The position numbers and the translations under genes were made by a program. The notes beneath the pieces were generated by a model that made no database searches, was not told where the DNA came from, and saw only the letters and a list, made by a program, of their open reading frames with translations. DNA of 63,808 nt, the filler included, from Basidiobolus ranarum (lineage: Eukaryota): assembly GCA_040143965.1 (NCBI GenBank). It is 11 parts of 11 records of this genome, joined end to end, with 100 filler letters (N's around TTAATTAATTAA, not from the genome) between each part and the next. Parts side by side here need not be neighbours in the genome. Positions count along the whole stretch, not along the records: positions 11,665 to 17,391 come from JASJQH010008392.1; 10 more parts are not named here. One strand, given 5' to 3'. This document shows positions 5,015-52,329 of this stretch, one piece after another. Each line of letters starts with the position of its first letter. Within the stretch, counting starts at the first letter, position 1.

Positions 5015-5733
5015 TGGGATCAGAAATAGCCCTGGTTACTATATCAATGAACCTGAGATTGGGCCTATGCCTGCACAGCTCAAATGCATGAGCCCCAGAC
5101 TGTAAAAGAGGCCCTGAATGGCCCTCACACAAAATTTTGGATATCTGCAATGGCTGATGAGTGCCTGGCTTTGATTGATAGTCAAACGTGTATTTTAACC
5201 AACTCACCTGCTGCTAGAGAATCAATTGGCTGCAAATGGGAGTATAAAGTTAAATACAACTCTGGTGGCAAAATAGAAAGGAACAATGCTAGACTAGTAG
5301 CTAGTGGCTATTCCCAAACTTTGTTGCACAGCATATTGCTTAATTCCAGCTCAAAAACGCTCAAAATTGGAACCCAAAAGCAGAAAATGCATATTTCTTG
5401 GTTACTGTGATGGATCCAAGGCCTACAGACTGTTTGATACCAAAAATCAGAAGTTAATTAAGTGCAGAGATGTGATTTTTGATGAAAAAGCAAATTTTTC
5501 ACCTCAAATCACAGTTCTTGATCCAGAAAACACAATCAGCACTATTCAGGAAGTGTCTGACAAAATTCCAGCTCTATCTGAGCCCAATTCAACCGAAATT
5601 TCAGTCCCAATTACATCAAAGGATGATGCAGGACCCAGAAGATCATCCAGAAGGAGAAATAAGCCAGGAAACTGGTGGAACACTTCCAATGATGATGTAT
5701 ATGCTTATGCAGCATTCTGTGACAAGCCACAGA
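5015..5733 (+). mobile_element. Copia pol fragments (RT N-terminus fused to an integrase C-terminal segment), truncated by the contig end
   Basis: EPQTVKEAL...IGCKWEYKVK...ARLVASGYSQ (RT start) is followed in another frame by RSKLEPKSRKCIFLGYCDGSKAYRLFD...RDVIFDE (post-integrase SH3-like segment). Confidence 0.88.
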
Positions 5734-5833: not shown

Positions 5834-7172
5834 TACATTTGACTGATTACTTGGGTACCACCTATATTTAGCTCTATTACACAAATGGCAGAAATGTTTA
5901 GAAAAGATAAAAATACTCAAACAAGTCCAAGACTCTTCACACCTAACTTCAAACTTTCTGAACTTCCTGGAGACACATCTTTTTTGTTATTTTGCCCATT
6001 TATGACAACATTACAAACACTCATTTTCAATCAAATGTAAGTTCAAATCACATTTTTTCCAATGATCTAAAACGCTGCTAGTTCAATGCAAAGGCACCCA
6101 GCAAAGCTAAGCTTGAGTTTAACTACTAATCAATGCTTGATATGAATTTCCTATTACTTTTTGACTAAATTCATTTGTTAGTGCTGATATTCAATATCTT
6201 AGTTAACTTTAGTCATGATGCATATATCAGAAACAAGAAAGCATTGCATCTATAGCCCCTATGTTCCAATCGGGAGTTTCTCCATATCTAAAAAACTAGT
6301 ATGCTTTGCTACCCCTGTACCTATTATATCTTATTACCCAAACTCTTAAGTGTCTTAAACAATTGATTTACTTCTCTGCTATGTATGTCACCATATTCTG
6401 TTAAGAATAAGCCAACTGAAACAGTATCACCATTTATCTCTATATAAGCAAGTTTATCTTCATTATGACTAGATCCTCCATTAGACACAAGCATACTGTG
6501 CATCACTAGTCTCTTGTACACTGACCATCATTTGCAATGCTACCCAAATATACGCTTGATAGCTAATAATACTATTCTCTGTTGCTTTAACAATATGATT
6601 GCATTATCTTGCTATTTCGATTCATAAACACTTTGATGACGAATCTAGCGCAATCACTTGACCTAGAAAAAAAGGGCTTGAAACCTGTTTAGAATCCCAA
6701 CTGCACTAAATATCACTCACTAATAATGATACCTAACTGTGGCTTATACTAAACCCATATGAACGAAATTACGCTTCATGACAGGGTAGAGTGAATAAGT
6801 GAATGGCACTGTTAAAACTTAGATTATCTGGATATCAGTAAGGCGTATATGATCAGCATGTATGCACAGTGAAACACTTCTAACATTTTCATCAAATACC
6901 GCGATAGTGATAATCCGTAACTACAATCCAGCTATATCTTGTAACACGTTTAGTATCTGCATGAAATATATATACGTAACAATGTATCATACACTACATC
7001 CTGAAACTGTGCGAAATAGTTAATGCACCTCAAGGGCTGAAAATGCAGGGCATTATGCATACGTGAAGACAAACACTTGGTTACGTACGTATATGTACTC
7101 TGTATAAATACACGTACATTTCCCTCATGTATCAGCACTCCCTCATTCAACCTTTCTTTTTTCCCTCATATA

Positions 7173-7892
7173 ATGCGCTGCCTTTATTCTCTGATTGCTC
7201 TGGTTGCCAGTATTCAGCTTGTACAAGGTAGCTATGGTGATGACAATGGAAGCGACAATGGTGGTGACAACTACGAAGCCCCTCAGGTATGCAATGCTCC
7301 ATCGTCCCAAGCTCCATTTAACAATAAGGCATTTTCATCCAATGAGAAAACCGACCCTGCCAACTTCGATAGTGTTGTTAGGGGACCGGGCTACACAGCT
7401 GCTTCATTGTTAAAAGCTGGCTGGGGGCCTAACAAGATGGTGCACGTTAATGGGTACAAATTCATTTTACCCAAATGGGGGAAAGGTATGAAAGACAACT
7501 GGATTGAGGGAGGACAGAAGGTGAAGGTCACTTCTGTGCCTGGTGCCACTCGGTTAGGGTTCCTACTATCAAGTGATATGGGAAACTTTGGAGGTAAATT
7601 CCATATCGTCTACACCGACTGCACTACTCAGGTTGAACGAGTAGGTGCAACTGATTGGAAATGGAAGATTGAACATGCACCTGGCAACACCATTGCACGT
7701 AATGGATTTTGGGCTACTAACGGAGGGGACGTTCGGATATACACCACTGAAGTAGACATTGATCCTAGTAAGACTATAGCTTACGTGCAGTTCCCAATGG
7801 CGAATGAAATCTATGACATCCATCCATATAGTAAAGGTACTAAGGGTCATGTTCATGTATTTGCACTTGCAACAAAAAAAGTAGGGTATTGA
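7173..7892 (+). CDS. Secreted 239-aa protein with a bacterial-type glycoside-hydrolase-associated beta-sandwich domain
   Basis: ATG at 7173 follows TATAAATA (~7103). Signal peptide MRCLYSLIALVASIQLVQG; intronless. Motifs FNNKAFS...ANFD...DN..GQ...RLGFL...YTDCTTQ...DW...DPSKTIAYVQFP...HVFALA match my recollection of the C-terminal domain of actinobacterial GH92-type proteins. Confidence 0.8.
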   Translation: MRCLYSLIALVASIQLVQGSYGDDNGSDNGGDNYEAPQVCNAPSSQAPFNNKAFSSNEKTDPANFDSVVRGPGYTAASLLKAGWGPNKMVHVNGYKFILPKWGKGMKDNWIEGGQKVKVTSVPGATRLGFLLSSDMGNFGGKFHIVYTDCTTQVERVGATDWKWKIEHAPGNTIARNGFWATNGGDVRIYTTEVDIDPSKTIAYVQFPMANEIYDIHPYSKGTKGHVHVFALATKKVGY

Positions 7893-11665: not shown

Positions 11666-11803
11666 GCCCGTGAGGGATATCTTCGTGACACTTACTATGA
11701 TGAGAAGAGACGCCTGTTCCCTCCTGCCAATGAAAGAGAGCCAGGAAAAGATTACTCTTATGGCGGAAAAACCTACAACTTGGCCACTCCAATTGTTGAC
11801 TGA
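11666..11803 (+). CDS. C-terminal fragment of a PhyH-family Fe(II)/2OG dioxygenase, PhnY-like (5' part lost at the contig edge)
   Basis: Manual translation gives AREGYLRDTYYDEKRRLFPPANEREPGKDYSYGGKTYNLATPIVD*, resembling the PhnY-type tail (EGD.R..YY.DKR..FPP..ER..GK.Y). It is adjacent to a PhnZ-like gene and too short for the ORF track. Confidence 0.65.
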   Translation, partial: AREGYLRDTYYDEKRRLFPPANEREPGKDYSYGGKTYNLATPIVD

Positions 11804-12227
11804 AAAGGTTAGATTTGGATAGTTAATGAACTGTTAAAAATAGACTCCCACTCTTTTGCATACTATTCAATAAAAACCAGTTATAATTAAGAATATATGT
11901 CTCTCGTTTCCTTAATGATGGTACGCTATTGAATGGGATTCAGTGCTGAGAAGAAATAAGGCTTATTTGTGTTCGAACAATCTTGTATTAACAAGTGTCA
12001 TAGTGGCTGAAAGAAACCATACATCTGGGGTACGTAAAATGTGAAAGGCTAAACTTAGCTATGATACTCTTTAGAATTAGTGATCGTGGAAAACTTGATT
12101 TCCATACTATGGTAAACTTTCGTGTAATGTTTAAGTATATAATGTAAACTGAAGAGGAAATAGTTTATTGATAATCACCAAACTGCTAAATAGTGGTATA
12201 AGTAAAGGCATGATTATGGATCTAACA

Positions 12228-12854
12228 TCATTGTACACTTAAGCTGGCTTGTTGCCTTAAGTGATTGATAGCCATCTGGCGATAATGCTCCAACTCGGGT
12301 ACTTTCAAATCCACTACTTTGGCACCATCATCCCATCTTCTGATGGCAACCTTTTCATTGTAGTATGGTAACTTTTCAAAATCTGCAACTTCCTCTGGAG
12401 TATATGGACCACCTTGGTATTTCAGAGAGAGCTTACTAGCATCACTCAGGGTATCATAGTATTCGGCGTACTTTCCAGTCAAGTAACGCTTTACAGGTAC
12501 ATGGGCCTCTACCAAGGCAGTGACCTTCTTTGAAAATCCTAATCGAGTCAAATATTCCGCGCCAATACGCTCATGTCCATGAACACCAACACTAAATGGC
12601 TCCGTAGCCCCCGCTAAATCGGTAGCCTCCACAAGCATCGCTTTCGACTCAGGAGAGCTCACGAATTGCCCGATATCATGAAGTAAAGCAGCCAAAATAG
12701 TCTCCTCGTCAGCACCGTTTTGCTCAGCTGAGGCAGCAGCCTGGAGAGCATGATCTAGTTGAGAAATCGATTCACCAATGTAGCCGCGCTCACTTCCATC
12801 CTGGAGGCATTGAAATACGTTGTTGATCACTCGGGCACATTTATCATCTAACAT
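12228..12854 (-). CDS. phnZ: PhnZ-like HD-domain diiron oxygenase (phosphonate C-P cleavage family)
   Basis: Motifs YIGESISQLDHALQAA, ALLHDIGQ, HERIGA, HVPVKRYL, LSDASKLSLKYQGG and RRWDDGAK give the full PhnZ/TmpB motif set. Intronless; likely ATG at 12854 (208 aa). Confidence 0.88.
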   Translation of the reverse strand: MLDDKCARVINNVFQCLQDGSERGYIGESISQLDHALQAAASAEQNGADEETILAALLHDIGQFVSSPESKAMLVEATDLAGATEPFSVGVHGHERIGAEYLTRLGFSKKVTALVEAHVPVKRYLTGKYAEYYDTLSDASKLSLKYQGGPYTPEEVADFEKLPYYNEKVAIRRWDDGAKVVDLKVPELEHYRQMAINHLRQQASLSVQ

Positions 12855-13062
12855 TTTGGAAGGCAACTGGACAAAATATAGCTAACAGGCTGAAATACTG
12901 AAATTCATCGATTACAACTATATATACGAAACATCCCCACACCAATATCTAGAATAGAACTCCTCCCCCATTTTCTGCATTATTATTCAAGTGAGTTGTA
13001 ATACGTTTCACGGGCAAGAAAATGTGCTCTTATTTCACTTTCATAGTGTTGCTGCAACTGCG

Positions 13063-13137
13063 AGCACGTGCTAAATTCGTTGGATTCATTCTCATCAAGG
13101 GTCTTGAGTACCAGTGGTCACTTTATATCCGCACGTG
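13063..13137. promoter_or_regulatory. Two CACGTG E-boxes (candidate Pho4/NUC-1-type sites) upstream of the phnZ-like gene
   Basis: Palindrome AGCACGTGCT at 13063-13072 and GCACGTG at 13131-13137, about 210 and 280 bp upstream of the ATG. TATATATA at ~12919-12926. Confidence 0.55.
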
Positions 13138-16100
13138 ATCAATAATCGACAGCTTAGTAGAGCCGTTGCTATTAGCGCAGGCCACCTAATATCGAAAAGA
13201 ATATATGTAGTCACCTCTATCATAGTGTGGCTAAAGGGTAATCAATATTATTACCCTGCAAGAATAATCCTACATCAATGAATAGCCGCTGTGAATCAAC
13301 GGTATGTCCCAATACCTGGCTATGACGTTTAAAAAATGCCACGTAGATATCATAAGCTTATCGATAACTGTCTGGCTAATAGAGATGCTGGACGTACCAC
13401 GAAACCGGCTAAAACTTTGTCCCTTCCCTTTCTTCTGAAGCAATATATTGTTAACAGAAGAGAGTATTACTGCAACATGTATCAGGTTAACAGTGATTGC
13501 ATCATCTTTTTGTGATGGTCATCGATGAAACGAGCACAATCGATCTTGTTCTTTCCAATTGTAGATCCTAATTTCTCAGTTTACTGTCACAATAATATGG
13601 CAGCAACTATATTGGTGACAGTTCCTCCAAGTTGCTTCCCTAGTATGGCATTACAATCCAATGCACACCATCCAGTGGAGTCACGGCTCTAAATTGCGGT
13701 GTTACTGCAATATTTACATTTTCTCATCACGAAGTATGCCTATTAGAACAGATTTTTGTTGTTGACTAGATTGAGGAAATCTCGAACTGTTTGTTAATGA
13801 TGGAAGGTTCTTATTTAGTGCTTTATGTGTGAGATTGTGCCAAAAAAGGTACACGTATTAGATTAAAGTGTCTCGTTCGAGCTGCCTTGTTCATGAGCAA
13901 AACTATTCTTACATACTTGAACCTCGTCAAAGACCGCGTTAGATGTTCTTGTTCATTCTGTCTCTTAGACGAGACTGTAAGTAAAGTTCTGTCTACGTGA
14001 AATACAAATTTTTCTGCTTATAAAAAGTTTGAATCTACCAGATCTGCGAGTAGTTTCTTGACGCTATGTTCAGTCTACCGCACTTAACGAGTATGAAAAA
14101 TGACGTTTTGCCCGTAATAAGATAGTTTTAATAGACCTTAATGTTTGAAGAAGCTACTTTCACGTTAGGAGTAAGATGAAGGATCAATTACATTCTTATG
14201 ATATATTTACCCTTACATACAACTAGTTTATGACGACGGACTCTACAGTGACTCAGTTTAGGTAGCAACTCTAATGGCATTGAATTTTGTCACACTGAGT
14301 CTATTTAAGCATATTATAACTTTTAGGTGCAAGTATGTTTCCAGAAAGGGCATTACCGATTTAAGTTCATTCATGCAATCTGCTGCTACAGTTGGATACG
14401 CTATTGCATTTGTAGGCCTTGATATGAACTCAGTTTATATATGCGGAGAGGTATCACTTTGCTCTATTGGTAACATTCCATGTATTGAATAAAATATGAA
14501 AGCCATTCAGGATGCCCAAAGTAATACTTAGTATTGGAAGTTGTAGAGTGTGCAAAACGGATGTAGTATTTGTGCTGCTAATTTACAAATTGCGATACTT
14601 TAGCGATCACCTGGCTAGGTAAATTTAAACTTTTTGTGGTACCTTATATACCTTTGACCATTTCATACATTTAGCATTATATTGCTCTCATTTCTAGGTT
14701 TATGGTTTTGCATTTTGCAAATACTTGACTTTAGAATTGGCTATGAGTATAGAATGTTTAAAGTTCCTTTAAGTATAAAAAAAGGCATTTATAGCAATGT
14801 TTCTTGCTGAGGCTTGATCTTGAACCTTCTGGACTGTATTTTGGAACCCCTCTAATACAATTAGGCCGTTTGTTTATCGATGCATTGCTTAGTAGTTATA
14901 CTCAAAACATAAGTCACTTGTTTGCATAGAGTCAACTATATATAGTTGGTACTCATTTGGCATATGGGATGAATTTAATACTAGAAACAGCATAAGATTC
15001 AGACACGTGATGCTGAATATTAGATTTTAACACTTTTGTATAGGCTTAAATGAAGGGCATAGTTATTGACTAAGGCAATGAGAAAGCTTAAGAAGCATAT
15101 GGGTTCAAGTGCAGTACCACTGCCAAGGCTGGAGGGACATTTGCAGTTCAGATACTGATTTTGTGAGTCTTACCATTAGCTAGAATTTTTATACCATGTG
15201 AAGAGGAGTTTCACTAGGAGGCTAGACTTGGCGGCTTGAAAGTGCCTGATGAATTTGCTATAATATTGCTGAGATAAACACTAGATCAAAAAATCCGCTT
15301 GCACATATTGCTTTCATATCTCATATATGATGTAAGCATTCATTAAAAAAGTATGTACTAGATATAGAATTGGCGGGATATTTGGCCTTTCTCTGCAACT
15401 GATACCATAAGTGTTATCAAGCAAACTTATTAGAGGTGCCTTTAATATTATATTTTATTAGACTTTATATATAGCCAATTGTTCCATTTGTTGAAACTGG
15501 CAGTATAATTAGATAGCGAATCTTTAGCAGTTGACTTCTTTGTATGCTATTAGATTTGAAATCAAAGATTGTAGAATACAAAAATAATAGTACATGTGGA
15601 GATCAGGTATGGGCAGTGAGCTGTAGGCAGAGAAATGACATTTGTAAAATGCTATTGTGAAATGGGAATCCTATATATCTAGCAGTAAGCAAACTATTCA
15701 CATGACTTGAAGTTGATTCTGATTGGGTGAATAACTTGGTGATTGTTTTGTTGGCATATTCTGTAAGCATATAGCCAAAAGTGTATAATTACATAGTTAT
15801 CAAGCTTACATTGACAGTAAGGATTATGTGGACAGTGTATATGAGGCCAGACTGTCTTTAGATGACTGATATTGCGATATTTTGAAGTTGGAGCATTATG
15901 AGCCATTGTAATATGTATATGATGATCAGAATGAAAATTTTTATACTTTGGAGGATAACACCGAGAATCAAATATGGTGTTTTGCACTGAAAATCTGTAG
16001 GTGGCAAATCAACCAATATAGATGGAGTTGGATGGCTTTGAAATTGCAAGTCCAACTTGTTAATTCTTGATTAGTTGCCTATTTGTTGAATATGTGGTCC

Positions 16101-17491
16101 AGTTTTCAACCATGCGTTTTATTTCTAACAAATTTTAACCAACTTGGATAGGATATTTAAGATAATAGATTTTAACAGCTGAATTCTGTTTGTATATTCT
16201 AATTGCCATTAAGAACTTTAGCACATGGTATATGTAGTACGTAACTTGCATGAACATTTGTGATGTACTCCTTGAATGATGAATGAAAATTGGTGTGGAG
16301 AGTCAGACCAGTTAACATCAAAGGGAACTTCTCAGGTACCATGGGGAGGTATCTAAGATGTTGTAAACATATTATTAGAATATAAGGTGAGAACTAACTG
16401 GCAGATTAAGCCTCTGCTCCCATTATCTCATCTTCTACACAACAACACGAAATGAGTTTCAAATGAAGCTTCGCTTAATAGTTACTTTTATACATTATCA
16501 AGTTGACACTACTCGTGGGAGATGGGATATTTTTGCACTTGACTGGTCAAACCTGAGTTAATTTACTTCTTAATTTATTATGATAATGTCTTTGTCTCAC
16601 TGAGGTTGACTTTGTTTTACTCTTATTTTGAGCGAACCTGTTGTATTCCGAAGTGCCTCACGGACTTTAGTATATATAAATTTACTTCGGTAAGCTGATT
16701 TATCGCTATGGGCGTGGGAAATAGCAGTCAGCTTGACAATGAAAATAATGCTCTTTCGTTATGTCATTGATATGCGATACAATTAAATCCTATATACTGT
16801 AGATAGTGGTGTTAACTGACATTATATGGGAGAATTCGTTGGAATGCCGGTTGTTCATGTTATCGCCAAGATTCTTAATAGGATATATGGAGGTATATAA
16901 GTGTTACACAGCCGAATTCAATTGACAAAGTATCGGTCAAACTCCTATGGCTCATTCTCCATTCCTCAAAATCACATCAGGATTCTAGTATTCAACGGTG
17001 ATTCACGGACTGAGTTTCAAATGGTGAGAACTGACTTCGAAAATCCAATAATTAAGGTTGAAGACAACGTTCCCAAGGAAGCCCCATTGTCTAGGCATCA
17101 TGAAATAGAACTTGGATCACCTATTTTCTTAAGGATAGTTTAGATGGAGTAATCCATCATTTGAAGATTTATGTAGTTAAGAGCAAACATGAAGATTACC
17201 AATCCCCGTTCCAGCGTAGACCAACCAGTTTGAAAGTGATTTCTATGGAAATCGTTATATAAGGCCAACTGTCAGTTTATTCCAATTTCTATACAATAAT
17301 AATAGCAGTGCCAACCAATTCAACCGAGACTCGATTATCGCTATTGTACCCAGTCACTAAATCGTGTTAACTCCGAACAATCGAGTCAGAANNNNNNNNN
17401 NNNNNNNNNNNNNNNNNNNNNNNNNNNNNNNNNNNTTAATTAATTAANNNNNNNNNNNNNNNNNNNNNNNNNNNNNNNNNNNNNNNNNNNN

Positions 17492-39149: not shown

Positions 39150-39422
39150 TTAACAAGAAGAACTTTTGAAACAGAATGTGTTGGCACCAATCTTCCTGTG
39201 ACAGCAATCGGACATACACCCAGCATATTCGTCAATGATATTCCAGAGCTTTTTATCAGAGTCATAGCCAGAGTTGTAGCAATACTTTCCGCAATCATAA
39301 GTAGGGTATTGTCCCGGTAAGGCGCAGTCGGACTTTGTGGAGCACCAAACCTTCATAGGGCATTTGGCTTGGGCCAGAGCAGCAATGCAGAGAGTAAATA
39401 TAACGGCGAATCCAGACTTCAT
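39150..39422 (-). CDS. Small secreted cysteine-rich protein (paralog 2)
   Basis: Signal peptide MKSGFAVIFTLCIAALAQA and the same 10-Cys spacing; 52/70 identical to paralog 1 over the Cys-bounded region by manual count. Confidence 0.9.
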   Translation of the reverse strand: MKSGFAVIFTLCIAALAQAKCPMKVWCSTKSDCALPGQYPTYDCGKYCYNSGYDSDKKLWNIIDEYAGCMSDCCHRKIGANTFCFKSSSC

Positions 39423-40734
39423 TGTTGATTTTAATAGCAGAACTTCATTACCATTTATATAAGTTGACCGATTACCCCAATAAGGGAATTTTGTCGCTCA
39501 CAATGATAGTCAAAATAGAGTTTCCTACGCATCATCAGGTCAAAGCTGATCTACCAATACAGTTAATTCTGTCATACCATGACCTGGCTGAACGAGTAGA
39601 TCATTTCTAAATTGATTGAGAGGGAAACATAGTGAAAGAAGGACCTCTTTCCTTCTTTTGGCTGATAATTGACTTTGCTCCAGTAGGCTTGCGAGTAAGC
39701 CGTATCTATAATGTGTAACTGCCTATCATATGCTTTTCCCCATGCACAAGATGTAATATAGGAGTATTGTCAGGGCGCCCAGTACACGGGTGCAAAGCAT
39801 TAGTTTTAAAGAAATCTCTCACAAGTTTTCCATATTTTGAATTTTCTGGTTATTGATGCCGAAGCTTTCTCTGCAAGGATTTGTGTTTCATTAGAGTTGT
39901 GCTATATGCAGATTTTTCATCATTGGTGCAATTTACGAAATACACTAACACCAATTGCCCAGTTGCCTCACTGGTTTGAGGAAATGTAATGCGACTAGAA
40001 CTGTACTAATAATTATGAAGTTATAGATAAACATCTGAGAACATAGTTATACACTAATAGCAATTATTTATATTAACTTCCCTGATATATATATATTACT
40101 TTATTAACCCTACCTATATACTAAAAGTAACTATTTCTATAGTATCTATACTCCGAGCAGCACACAAGAGAGCAAGGATAATAATGGTTGTAAATTATCG
40201 AAATAACATAATTACTTTTAAAATCATCGGCATTAAGATCAATGCTATTATATATATATATAAAAACTGAATTCATTTTCACAAATAACCCTGCTAAATC
40301 GAACACGTATATGTCAAGTACCTGGCAATGACGATAAGATTGATAATATGTATATAGCTGTTACCTGTATAAGACTCTTATATCTATTATGATTTATTGT
40401 ACGCTGATCAATGTGAAACAATAACTCGAAATTAACTACACTGGAGGTTAGTAAAGTTAAAGTAGATGTTAAGGGATTTTAGAAACTATACATTTTAACC
40501 CAAGAAACTTATATTCAGGGATAAACTCCAAAAATGAAGTTAAGCACCATGGCACTGCAAGGAGGCATTGTTATTCTTCAACCAAGCAGGAAGGTTCACA
40601 AAATTACCTGTGTAGTCCACGGCCCAGGCTCTGCNNNNNNNNNNNNNNNNNNNNNNNNNNNNNNNNNNNNNNNNNNNNTTAATTAATTAANNNNNNNNNN
40701 NNNNNNNNNNNNNNNNNNNNNNNNNNNNNNNNNN

Positions 40735-44400: not shown

Positions 44401-44522
44401 CACTGCAGCACGGCCACTACATAAATCCCGGCTGCGATAGATTTGGCCGCCAAATTCCAGAAATTTTCATTTCATCAACTTTGTATCTTCACCTTAATAG
44501 CCTCCTACACTATTAGTACACT

Positions 44523-45654
44523 ATGGTATCGTTGCAGGAGAGTGAGCTTACACCGGAACTTTCCAAAGTAGTATTTGAGCAATTTCAACAGGCCAAGCTT
44601 TTCACTTTCATATATGCTGCGATGTTTACCGCTATGGTTCCTAATTTTTTCTATGCCACTCGACTAATCATAAGACGAGGATGCAGTACTGCAGCGCCAG
44701 TGATTTGTTTCTTTCAGTCTCTTTGTGCGTTGGCACTCATGACAATTGCTCTATTCGCATATATTTATCCTATGTCAAATTGTCAACTCCAAGGTCGAAT
44801 TATCGAATCATTTGTAATAGCGGTTCTAATCGGGCTTCATTCTCTCCTGTTCGTCAAAGCTTACTTTGCTGTTCAAAAACCCTTTTGGTTGTTGGTTGTT
44901 CATGTGATTCTTGAGGTAGCTTTTGTTGTCTCTGTATTAATGGCTGCTATTGACGAAAAGCATATCCGTTTGGAAGTGCAGAAGATTTGCATTAGTGTAT
45001 TACCTGAGGACTGGCTGCTTGTAGAATTGGTATTAGATATTGTATTCAACGTATTTTATTCTGGCATCTTCCTGTGGGTCTTGAAGGTTCAACAGAAGCG
45101 TACCAAAGGGACACATTGGGGATCGCTCATTAAGGATGGTTTGATTTACATGTTTGCCATTACTCTCTCAACCACCATATTGGTTGTCATATCTATTATC
45201 AATGGTCCGGCTAAAACGGGAGTACTTCTATTTGCTGTGGCAGGTAAAGCATCGCTATCTCTGAATAGACAACATCGGGTTTGTCAGATAATTGATAACA
45301 GACACTAACAGTCGCGTTGCCATTATAGCTGTAATTGGGTCTTGCTTAATGACAAGTCAATTGTGGAAATCTGCCACCAGGACCACCCATATCACCGCAA
45401 GCTTTTTGACTGATGAGGCTTCTAAGCGATCCAACAATAACGGAAGCTCCTCGGGCCAAGCCACTCGGCATGATCTTTATCATAACATAGAGAATGGACG
45501 TCATGAGTCTCACGAATTGAGAATGGTGAAATCAAAGACGGGGTTATCATGTGATTGTGATGCGCCTAATCATTCTCATGATTGCTTTTGTCAACCAAAT
45601 CCCGGAGGAAGTCGGCCAGAGAGTGTTCTTTTAACAGTGAAAAACTTGAATTAA
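44523..45654 (+). CDS. Multi-pass (7TM-like) membrane protein with a cytoplasmic tail; one intron
   Basis: About seven hydrophobic segments, with Cys in predicted extracellular loops. Intron 45244-45328 (GTAAAG...CTAAC...TAG) joins the two ORFs in frame. Confidence 0.78.
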
Positions 45655-50058: not shown

Positions 50059-51894
50059 TTAGTTCATGGTCATCAGTGTGGTGAGACCAAAAACTAGACT
50101 GATTGAGATTCCACCATAGCTTAGGGAATTGGCATCAGAGACATTTTTCTTTTCTGTGACCTTACCATTACCGCTGACAGCTGCGGTGTTACTAGGCTTC
50201 TTGGCACAGTTGGTGTTGCATGTGTGATAGCAATCGTCCTCTGGGTATTGTGGTTGTTTACCAGTAACGTTGGCATGACCCCAACCAAGATCTAAGTTAC
50301 AATCACTGTAAGCATGGAAATTGGAGGCACCGTACCAGTCCATTAATCCAGCGAGTGCCCCTTGGAACCCTGCATTATAATCTTGTGTTACTTCAGTATA
50401 TACGTAATTCGTGCGATCATCAAAGAAAGTATCATCAGTATCAGGTCCTCCAACCAATGCTCCGTAAAGGATGAATCGGTTCTTGGTCATACTATTCAAA
50501 AAATCATCACCAACCACGGACTGAGCTTTTCCTCTCAGTGGGTACTCAATGTAGGAGTTGTAACTACCCTTATGATAAGGTCTCTGGGGGTAATCTTGGC
50601 CAAATCCGACCACCCACGATCTACCACAGTCACCTAGGATGTAATTCATCTGTTGTGTGGCATGATTCAACAATTTCTTGGAGTATGGATCATTATATCC
50701 AAGGTCTTTAGCATGGTAAATCATTCCAAAGGCAGTGTTAGCAGAGTAGGATAGAGAACCCCATTTTTCATAAAACGATAGCCCCCGTGGGGTTTGTTTC
50801 ACCTTCTGCTGTGGCCCAGGGAGCCAGCTATCGAAGAATTTCTGTGCATTGGTCTTATAAACTTCCTGCTTAGTGATATGATACAGGAGGACATGGCAAG
50901 CGGCACCTTGATCATCCCACGACCATTCAGAGCCTGCGTTGACAGCAGCGTTATACCACTTGATACCTTCATCAAGATATGTCTGGTTATTGGTAGCTTG
51001 ATACAGGAATAAAGCGGCTAAGGCGAGTTCGTCTCTCCACTCAGTAGAAGGATACCACTCCTTCACGGTAGTCCAATTGGTGTCTTTGGAGGTCATGAAG
51101 GTTCCGGGATAGGAGGAGCCGAAGTTGTAAAGTTGGGCTGCGTGATCAATTAGAGTTTTGGAATAAGTGGGATCAGAATCTTTGAATATCATAGCGGTGG
51201 CAGCCATGGCAGCCGATGCAATACCAACAATCTCCGACGATGGATTTTCTGGGGTTACATAGAATGCGGTGTGCATGATTCCCAGAGGGACATATTGCTC
51301 ATAAAATTCAGGTGGCCCGAAATAGCCAAAATCCACGTCAGTCGTACCAACAGCAGAGGTACCAAGCTGAGCAACGAAAGCGAGAGGCTGGGGATGGGCA
51401 TTGATGAGATAATCCGTACCCCATTTGAGATTCTCCATAGCCTCATTCTTTTCGTTGACACTCTCCATGGCATCTCCAAAGGCCAAGATATTAAAGGCCA
51501 GCTGCATCACAGTGTATCCTAGTGGTTGCGACCACTTCATAGTATTAGCGGCTTCGTACCAACCACCACTGAGATCCTCACCATATTTACCCTTGCACTC
51601 GAAGCAAGAATCAGAACGCCAGGCTAGTCGTTGGTATGGAAGCTTTCCTGAGCTCTGAGTATGGTAGAAACTTTGCGACTTGTGCAAGACCTCGGAATAG
51701 TCGTATTTGGCCTTTTCGGGAGCGACGTAGTTAGGCGAAGCCAATGGTCCGGGGGGAGTGATACGGGGATCTTCAGGAGTGCCATTTTTAGGGCTTTCTT
51801 GCTCATCGAGCTGAAAAACCCTACGAGAGTCGGCTAGTTGAAAGGAGCATAAAGAGAGAACGACGGAGGCGGAAGCAAAATTCGAAAGCTTCAT
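50059..51894 (-). CDS. Glycoside hydrolase family 9 protein, secreted and probably GPI-anchored, with a non-canonical catalytic motif
   Basis: Signal peptide; motifs YSEVLHKS..FY..Q.SGKLP, WRSDS, DLSGGWYEAAN, KWGTDYL, WRDELA, GALVGGP and DDRTNYVYTEVTQDYNA; hydrophobic C-terminus; intronless. Confidence 0.92.
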   Translation of the reverse strand: MKLSNFASASVVLSLCSFQLADSRRVFQLDEQESPKNGTPEDPRITPPGPLASPNYVAPEKAKYDYSEVLHKSQSFYHTQSSGKLPYQRLAWRSDSCFECKGKYGEDLSGGWYEAANTMKWSQPLGYTVMQLAFNILAFGDAMESVNEKNEAMENLKWGTDYLINAHPQPLAFVAQLGTSAVGTTDVDFGYFGPPEFYEQYVPLGIMHTAFYVTPENPSSEIVGIASAAMAATAMIFKDSDPTYSKTLIDHAAQLYNFGSSYPGTFMTSKDTNWTTVKEWYPSTEWRDELALAALFLYQATNNQTYLDEGIKWYNAAVNAGSEWSWDDQGAACHVLLYHITKQEVYKTNAQKFFDSWLPGPQQKVKQTPRGLSFYEKWGSLSYSANTAFGMIYHAKDLGYNDPYSKKLLNHATQQMNYILGDCGRSWVVGFGQDYPQRPYHKGSYNSYIEYPLRGKAQSVVGDDFLNSMTKNRFILYGALVGGPDTDDTFFDDRTNYVYTEVTQDYNAGFQGALAGLMDWYGASNFHAYSDCNLDLGWGHANVTGKQPQYPEDDCYHTCNTNCAKKPSNTAAVSGNGKVTEKKNVSDANSLSYGGISISLVFGLTTLMTMN

Positions 51895-52329
51895 TGTATT
51901 TTACTTGATAGTTGATTTTCGAATTGATTGATTCGCAGAAAAGGCCAGACAATTATTGCAGAGTAGAATCGCTTTCTTTTATACACTTCTTGGTTATCCG
52001 ATTAGTAGGATCAATCACGCACACGTCACAAGTATTGGAACTCCGGTTGGATTGAAGGGGATTATGTTTTACTATATCGATGTTCCCCACTAGGATATCT
52101 GGCGCGGATGTATTTTAATTTTTCACTTGGCTCCAGATGGTCTATTTATCACACCAGAAAGACACGATTCATTGATGTGAATCGATGCAACTGGCTGTAG
52201 ATGAAATTTGCAATATCAAAAATTTCGAANNNNNNNNNNNNNNNNNNNNNNNNNNNNNNNNNNNNNNNNNNNNTTAATTAATTAANNNNNNNNNNNNNNN
52301 NNNNNNNNNNNNNNNNNNNNNNNNNNNNN

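Follow-up and report, generated by a model that had tools for sequence, protein, structure and literature searches.

The characterised enzymes that cleave the carbon–phosphorus (C–P) bond oxidatively are bacterial, apart from a single fused one from a fungus. Four versions are distinguished in PMC10574752: PhnY*/PhnZ, acting on 2-aminoethylphosphonate (AEP); GmPhnY*/GmPhnZ, acting on methylphosphonate; TmpA/TmpB; and the fused fungal PhoF, acting on AEP and 3-aminopropylphosphonate (APP). For example, the PhnY*/PhnZ pair of the uncultured marine bacterium HF130_AEPn_1 (PDB 4MLM, 4MLN, 4N6W and 4N71) converts AEP to (R)-HAEP and then to glycine and phosphate. PhoF, from Fonsecaea multimorphosa, joins the PhnY and PhnZ parts in one protein (PMC10574752). 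Unfused neighbours have been predicted from the genomes of two ascomycetes, Penicillium psychrofluorescens and P. antarcticum, where phnY* (K21195) lies beside phnZ (K21196) (PMC12422055). In the literature covered, the pair is unreported for Zoopagomycota, Mucoromycota and dictyostelids, although the primary PhoF, PhnZ and TmpA/TmpB papers may cover them; the main text of a paper on gene transfer into Basidiobolus (PMC7466969) lacks the word ‘phosphonate’.

Here we describe such a pair in Basidiobolus ranarum, a Zoopagomycota-type fungus and thus unlike the Penicillium hosts. The original prediction for this DNA was of a PhnY/PhnZ pair. It had the right enzymes under the wrong names, since in the glossary of PMC8154272 the AEP dioxygenase is called PhnY*, and the unstarred PhnY stands for phosphonoacetaldehyde dehydrogenase. 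Its attribution of methylphosphonate to PhnY* holds only for the Gimesia enzyme (PMC10574752), and to the fused ascomycete form that it names must be added the unfused Penicillium pairs (PMC12422055) and the convergent Dikarya-type loci described below. The pair itself is real and belongs to a pathway known from bacteria and other fungi; its chemistry is not new. We consider it probable that this is one of several copies of a fungal PhnY*/PhnZ cluster, whose task would be phosphate-starvation-induced, AEP-type C–P cleavage.

The analysed stretch, hereafter the window, spans 63,808 nucleotides and joins 11 contigs of ∼5.7 kb with N spacers between them. The pair sits at the left end of the contig at 11665-17391. 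On the plus strand, 45 codons and a stop (11666..11803) form the 3′ end of a PhyH-family Fe/2-oxoglutarate dioxygenase gene of PhnY*-like type, which is truncated by the contig edge at 11665. On the minus strand, a PhnZ-type HD di-iron oxygenase gene (12228..12854) is a complete, single-exon open reading frame of 208 aa. The two stop codons converge across 424 bp, and both the length of the tail and this spacing measured as predicted. The genes occupy opposite strands and each has its own stop codon, in contrast to the single polypeptide of PhoF. Possible poly(A) signals (AATAAA) lie ∼65 bp past the hydroxylase stop (11869..11874, plus strand) and ∼59 bp past the phnZ stop (12164..12169, minus strand); they are weak evidence for two separate transcripts, since the hexamer is frequent in the window (38 on the plus strand, 51 on the minus strand).

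Beyond phnZ, 10 open frames of at least 60 aa overlap 12860-17391, the longest of 104 aa, and counting open frames by size found no further cluster gene on the contig. An Rfam search of the contig gave zero matches, and its repeats are weak and chance-like. The rest of the window holds no second piece of phnZ or of the hydroxylase gene.

The minus-strand protein matches the Pfam HD domain (E 1.6e-7), and a PDB sequence search with it returned four matches, three of HF130 PhnZ (4MLM, 4N71 and 4N6W, E ∼1e-42) and one of TmpB. Among curated families it scores 175 bits on TIGR03276 (Phn-HD; E 1e-51, cut-off 214.6), 155 bits on NF052439 (GmPhnZ1; cut-off 300) and 132 bits on NF049941 (TmpB; cut-off 300). 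It is not assigned to any of these bacterial equivalogs, and five eukaryotic homologues likewise score too low. These matches, with the intact frame, bear out the prediction of a complete minus-strand PhnZ-type oxygenase. A protein search gave 1050 matches among 1345 candidates; the closest named relatives among the best 120 of the 1050 are from Basidiobolus (85%), followed by Mucorales, dictyostelids and Kickxellales. The 40 records from a plasmid search are all below 60% identity, with the best 20 of the 40 at 29-38%.

PhnZ and TmpB have in common an H...HD...H...H...D ligand set and a YxxE loop (PMC8177086). In the window protein, the di-iron ligands H35, H59, D60, H94, H118 and D175 align with H34, H58, D59, H80, H104 and D161 of 4MLM, and none of them varies across the 21 aligned rows; the loop is present as Y25-I-G-E28, matching Y24/E27 of HF130 PhnZ. 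K122, S140 and R172 stand at HF130 positions K108, S126 and R158, which we take to be the phosphonate-binding residues, and Q133 is conserved in the alignment. Other positions differ: Thr129 is replaced by Ser, a 13-residue insertion follows the HD motif, and His62, presumably a second-sphere residue, is replaced by Gln63. This Gln is common to the fungal and dictyostelid rows and an Exophiala fusion, whereas bacterial rows have His.

The locus resembles that of HF130_AEPn_1 in placing a separate PhyH-type hydroxylase gene next to an HD di-iron oxygenase gene that keeps the metal ligands, the YxxE loop and the equivalents of K108, S126 and R158. This comparison is drawn from the PhnZ side. The two differ in that the Basidiobolus genes are eukaryotic, convergent and preceded by an E-box promoter, whereas the bacterial genes form an operon. 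The proposed order of action, a 2-oxoglutarate hydroxylase followed by an HD oxygenase, is also the one used on methylphosphonate by Gimesia maris (GmPhnY*/GmPhnZ1) and on TMAEP by Leisingera caerulea (TmpA/TmpB). Unlike those systems, the Basidiobolus proteins lie far under the NF052437, NF052439 and NF049941 cut-offs, and Gm-like proteins form another clade.

The hydroxylase is represented in the window by its tail. By itself, the 45-aa piece matched no Pfam or NCBIfam model, and it lies beyond the domain boundary of PF05721. Against longer proteins, four of eight candidates passed, all of the PhyH family (PF05721; E 2e-22 to 3e-12), and every match falls at the C-terminus. The tail is identical at 45 of 45 positions to that of P0003, an annotated 121-aa B. 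ranarum protein encoded on another contig of 2866 bp, 93% identical to the full-length paralogue P0004 (267 aa), and 87% identical to P0126 and P0005 (B. meristosporus); P0006 of Heterostelium is the fourth PhyH protein matched. Full-length paralogues, of which the genome has at least two (P0004 and P0126), carry H122-x-D124, H202 and R213 in alignment with human PHYH. An AlphaFold model of P0004 (pLDDT 92.5) resembles PhyH-type 2-oxoglutarate oxygenases and has their double-stranded beta-helix, and TmpA is not among the three PDB sequence matches of this protein. Because of this tail identity and the triad in the full-length paralogues, the analysis supports reading the fragment as the C-terminus of a PhyH-family, PhnY*-like dioxygenase. 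The earlier identification of a PhnY-like tail is upheld by a protein search whose four passing matches were all to PhyH C-termini. Its description as hidden and unannotated was partly right, as the identical tail stands in the annotated P0003 on a different contig.

Whether the window copy is whole bears on which hydroxylase serves this PhnZ. Its HxD...H triad and 2-oxoglutarate-binding Arg fall outside the contig, which holds 45 of ∼267 codons. P0003 carries PF05721 (37 bits, cut-off 22), but its model begins at an internal Met past the HxD motif. It is without the first 147 residues, retains the second His and the Arg, and is not marked partial in its source. The system could therefore be as we describe while the window hydroxylase is a decaying duplicate, with PhnZ partnered by the hydroxylase of the intact paralogues. 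The shortened P0003, the sole protein with an identical tail, would fit such decay, as would the full-length paralogues elsewhere and the slightly longer branch of the window PhnZ relative to its paralogue (0.095 versus 0.062). Nonetheless, we regard a decaying copy as unlikely. The 120 residues of P0003 are 84% like B. meristosporus, compared with 82-83% for the full-length paralogues, so no faster decay is seen, and phnZ is intact, with all its ligands and two E-boxes. In B. meristosporus, two hydroxylase genes only three accessions apart are almost identical, and with copies of this kind an assembly from short reads would come apart within the gene. From these copies and the unremarkable divergence of P0003, we prefer to read the contig break as an assembly broken at near-identical duplicates, and the window copy would then continue intact beyond the edge.

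The adjacency recurs: PhyH and HD proteins bear consecutive numbers in B. ranarum (K7432_007440/007441), twice in B. meristosporus (ORX91261/91262 and ORX96328/96329), and in the slime mould Heterostelium (PPL_05239/05240). They also occur in all five pairs from Syncephalastrum, Zychaea, Thamnidium, Martensiomyces and Absidia cylindrospora; this is not an unbiased rate, since the five were preselected for having both proteins on equally sized contigs. Helicostylum and Absidia repens have consecutive pairs too, among the cluster members, and Umbelopsis nana and Apophysomyces have the pair with consecutive locus tags. The PhyH and HD numbers of Synstelium lie far apart. Adjacency in these genomes is read from consecutive numbers rather than from gene orientation. 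With that reading, the predicted unfused two-gene arrangement proved to be conserved in related genomes, across Basidiobolus, Mucorales, a kickxellalean and Heterostelium, and across several fungal subphyla.

Metagenomic and other loci (174 in all) point the same way. Among homologues with the same type of tail, 29 loci extend at least 1 kb on either side, and in 27 of these phnZ is the neighbour or the fusion partner; the set contains near-duplicate loci, three Dikarya-type loci and many bacterial fusions in the PhnZ-PhnY order. When the 1-kb flank filter is dropped, the figure is 41 of 56. The YNLATPI-type tail thus marks homologues that mostly adjoin, or are fused to, phnZ. Another 92 loci (L003-L094), nearly all of a large bacterial sister subfamily ending in Y-x-F-R/K-V, have no phnZ within the flanking sequence, which spans up to 4 kb, or ∼1.5 kb in the case of L081-L094. 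Among the Dikarya-type metagenome loci, four (L133, L142, L144 and L145) are unfused and convergent, as in the window, and one (L136) has a divergent pair.

Several side observations concern the same two families. Fusions with PhnZ first and PhnY second, the reverse of the Exophiala/PhoF type, are common in metagenomes and occur in at least three lineages (L106-L128, L132, L139, L140, L153 and L167-L174). A Spirochaetales genome has a divergent phnZ/hydroxylase pair and, two genes away, a gene that by eye resembles a BCCT transporter (L002:765-2447). The Bifiguratus protein P0162 carries a cwf18 splicing-factor domain along with the hydroxylase and is probably a merged gene model.

The likely substrate, to judge from relatives, is AEP. 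JGI labels several close homologues ‘2-aminoethylphosphonate dioxygenase’, and the second Atlas cluster is named as AEP dioxygenase. The paralogues have a phosphonate hydroxylase model as their best NCBIfam match (203-221 bits). Like PhoF, the Basidiobolus proteins are fungal; both fall in a clade with Dikarya homologues that include the Exophiala (Chaetothyriales) fusion P0083, our proxy for PhoF, and share its Gln at the His62 position. They differ from PhoF in being encoded by two genes and in having a hydroxylase C-terminus of the YNLATPI rather than the YGFGSP type. The suggested specificity for AEP is drawn from automatic labels and from the PhoF proxy P0083.

Methylphosphonate, cleaved to formate and phosphate, or some other phosphonate is an improbable substrate, with some points in its favour. 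The only curated model strongly matched by the hydroxylases is that of the Gimesia methylphosphonate hydroxylase (GmPhnY*, NF052437). Members of the wider family vary in substrate (PMC10574752). The change from His62 to Gln may also alter the PhnZ pocket. However, NF052437 calls for more than 500 bits and a match to the model end, whereas Basidiobolus scores 203-215 bits and the match stops at ∼238 of 260. Among the 47 proteins scanned, the top scorers (349-360 bits) reach 256-259 of 260, but they differ in their C-terminus and group in a clade of their own. The sister fungal clade has the tail type of P0083, the proxy for an enzyme that acts on AEP and APP. A class-wide genome search for Gimesia PhnY* found none over the cut-off in 401 genomes and recovered the sister subfamily only, so the metagenome loci L134, L146 and L148 served as proxies.

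The preferred reading of an AEP-type, phosphate-starvation-induced cluster also draws on the promoter. Two GCACGTG sequences, E-boxes of the Pho4/NUC-1 type, lie at 13064..13070 and 13131..13137, so placed that their CACGTG cores precede the phnZ ATG by 211 and 278 bp. The window holds four CACGTG in all, two of them within 500 bp upstream of phnZ. Dinucleotide shuffles of this 500-bp stretch gave two or more in 18 of 10000 trials, a test chosen after the motif had been noticed. The Neurospora factor NUC-1 has GCACGTG as its consensus (PMC12506109), and RiPho4 of Rhizophagus (Mucoromycota) binds CACGTG/T (PMC9895418).

An independent test used eight de-duplicated fungal-type loci. Of their 14 gene starts, 12 have CACGTG in the preceding 500 bp, and the next-best palindromic hexamer reaches 5 of 14. 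The two starts without it belong to open frames that begin inside a gene, and some further starts in intron-bearing loci may be misplaced. The upstream regions hold 16 copies in 6.7 kb (2.4/kb), against 10 in 44.7 kb elsewhere (0.22/kb; p 1e-8). In 15 bacterial control loci, CACGTG lies upstream of 5 of 28 genes. Since CACGTG is recognised by many bHLH factors (PMC12506109), Pho4-type control of the pair is something we infer from these boxes.

A mechanism can be proposed in three steps. Phosphate starvation would lead a Pho4-type bHLH factor to activate the genes through their CACGTG boxes. The PhyH-fold enzyme, with Fe(II), 2-oxoglutarate and O2, would then hydroxylate C1 of an aminoalkylphosphonate, most likely AEP if relatives are a guide. 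Finally, the HD enzyme, with its mixed-valent di-iron site and YxxE loop, would use O2 to cleave the C–P bond, releasing phosphate and an amino acid; PhnZ chemistry yields glycine from AEP (PMC8177086).

Both the motif and the adjacency bear on a more radical alternative, that the substrate is an alpha-hydroxy compound other than a phosphonate or that the adjacency has no functional meaning. A 2-oxoglutarate oxygenase paired with an HD oxygenase is known to cleave C–C bonds (SmaO/SmaX; PMC12186529), and the window's HD protein scores under all curated cut-offs. Yet the retained Lys, Ser and Arg and the YxxE loop, the phosphate-starvation-type boxes and the adjacency maintained across several fungal subphyla all count against it, and we give this alternative very little weight.

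As an aside, the supplement of PMC12506109 lists the Neurospora PhyH gene NCU04845 as up 4-fold on phosphate starvation and down 3.6-fold without nuc-1. Its promoter is listed there as NUC-3-bound, through a peak common to the neighbouring NCU04844. The two genes may or may not be a PhnY*/PhnZ pair.

In maximum-likelihood trees (37-38 rows hand-picked from the matches, model LG+G4), both proteins join those of Mucoromycota, Kickxellales and Dikarya in a fungal clade that is separate from the bacterial rows. Support for this clade is 99/97 for the hydroxylase, 99/96 for PhnZ and 100/100 for the joined alignment, six rows of which each combine two species of a group. A recent transfer from bacteria into Basidiobolus alone is rejected, because both proteins group with other fungi and away from bacteria.

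Copies from the dictyostelids Heterostelium, Synstelium and Acytostelium fall inside the early-diverging fungi, with nesting supported at 98/87 and 99/94 for PhnZ and at 98/93 and 95/94 in the joined tree, which places them as sister to Basidiobolus (90/78). Transfer of the cluster to dictyostelids is therefore possible, but old inheritance with losses remains the alternative, since a fungi-only clade without dictyostelids is not rejected by the AU test (p 0.34 for the hydroxylase, 0.20 for PhnZ and 0.065 joined, with sets that omit unnamed metagenome rows near the fungal clade). A bolder account, in which the pair is an old Pho4-controlled fungal cluster whose genes stayed side by side in Zoopagomycota, Mucoromycota and Dikarya and that moved whole from an early-diverging fungus near Basidiobolus into dictyostelids, is one we put forward tentatively, at somewhat short of even odds.

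What this work adds lies in the promoter boxes and in the slime-mould copies. A conserved unfused pair with starvation-type boxes would extend the range of eukaryotes known to use phosphonates as a phosphorus source, and with the slime-mould copies nested among fungi, transfer of a gene cluster from one eukaryote to another can be put to the test. If the bolder account is true, fungi and social amoebae would be overlooked soil phosphonate degraders with their own PhnZ variant, marked by the change of His62 to Gln.

Other features lie elsewhere in the window. An intron-free frame of 613 codons on the minus strand (50059-51900) has a glycoside hydrolase family 9 domain (363 bits), a likely signal peptide, a hydrophobic C-terminus and a GC content above that of the window. 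Two apparently secreted proteins, one from a 283-codon frame at 7041-7892 (plus strand) and one small and cysteine-rich at 39150-39497 (minus strand), have no Pfam match, and the same is true of a membrane protein at 44517-45308. Degenerate Ty1/copia-type retrotransposon pieces lie at 5057-5733 (plus strand), with a weak RVT_2 match and a retroviral SH3-like domain. Between 23253 and 63631 are ordinary fungal genes or gene pieces: an arrestin, a P-type cation ATPase, a C2 domain, a mitochondrial DNA polymerase exonuclease, a NUDIX protein, an NAD-dependent epimerase-like protein, a COQ5 methyltransferase, a polysaccharide deacetylase and a myosin with a DIL domain.
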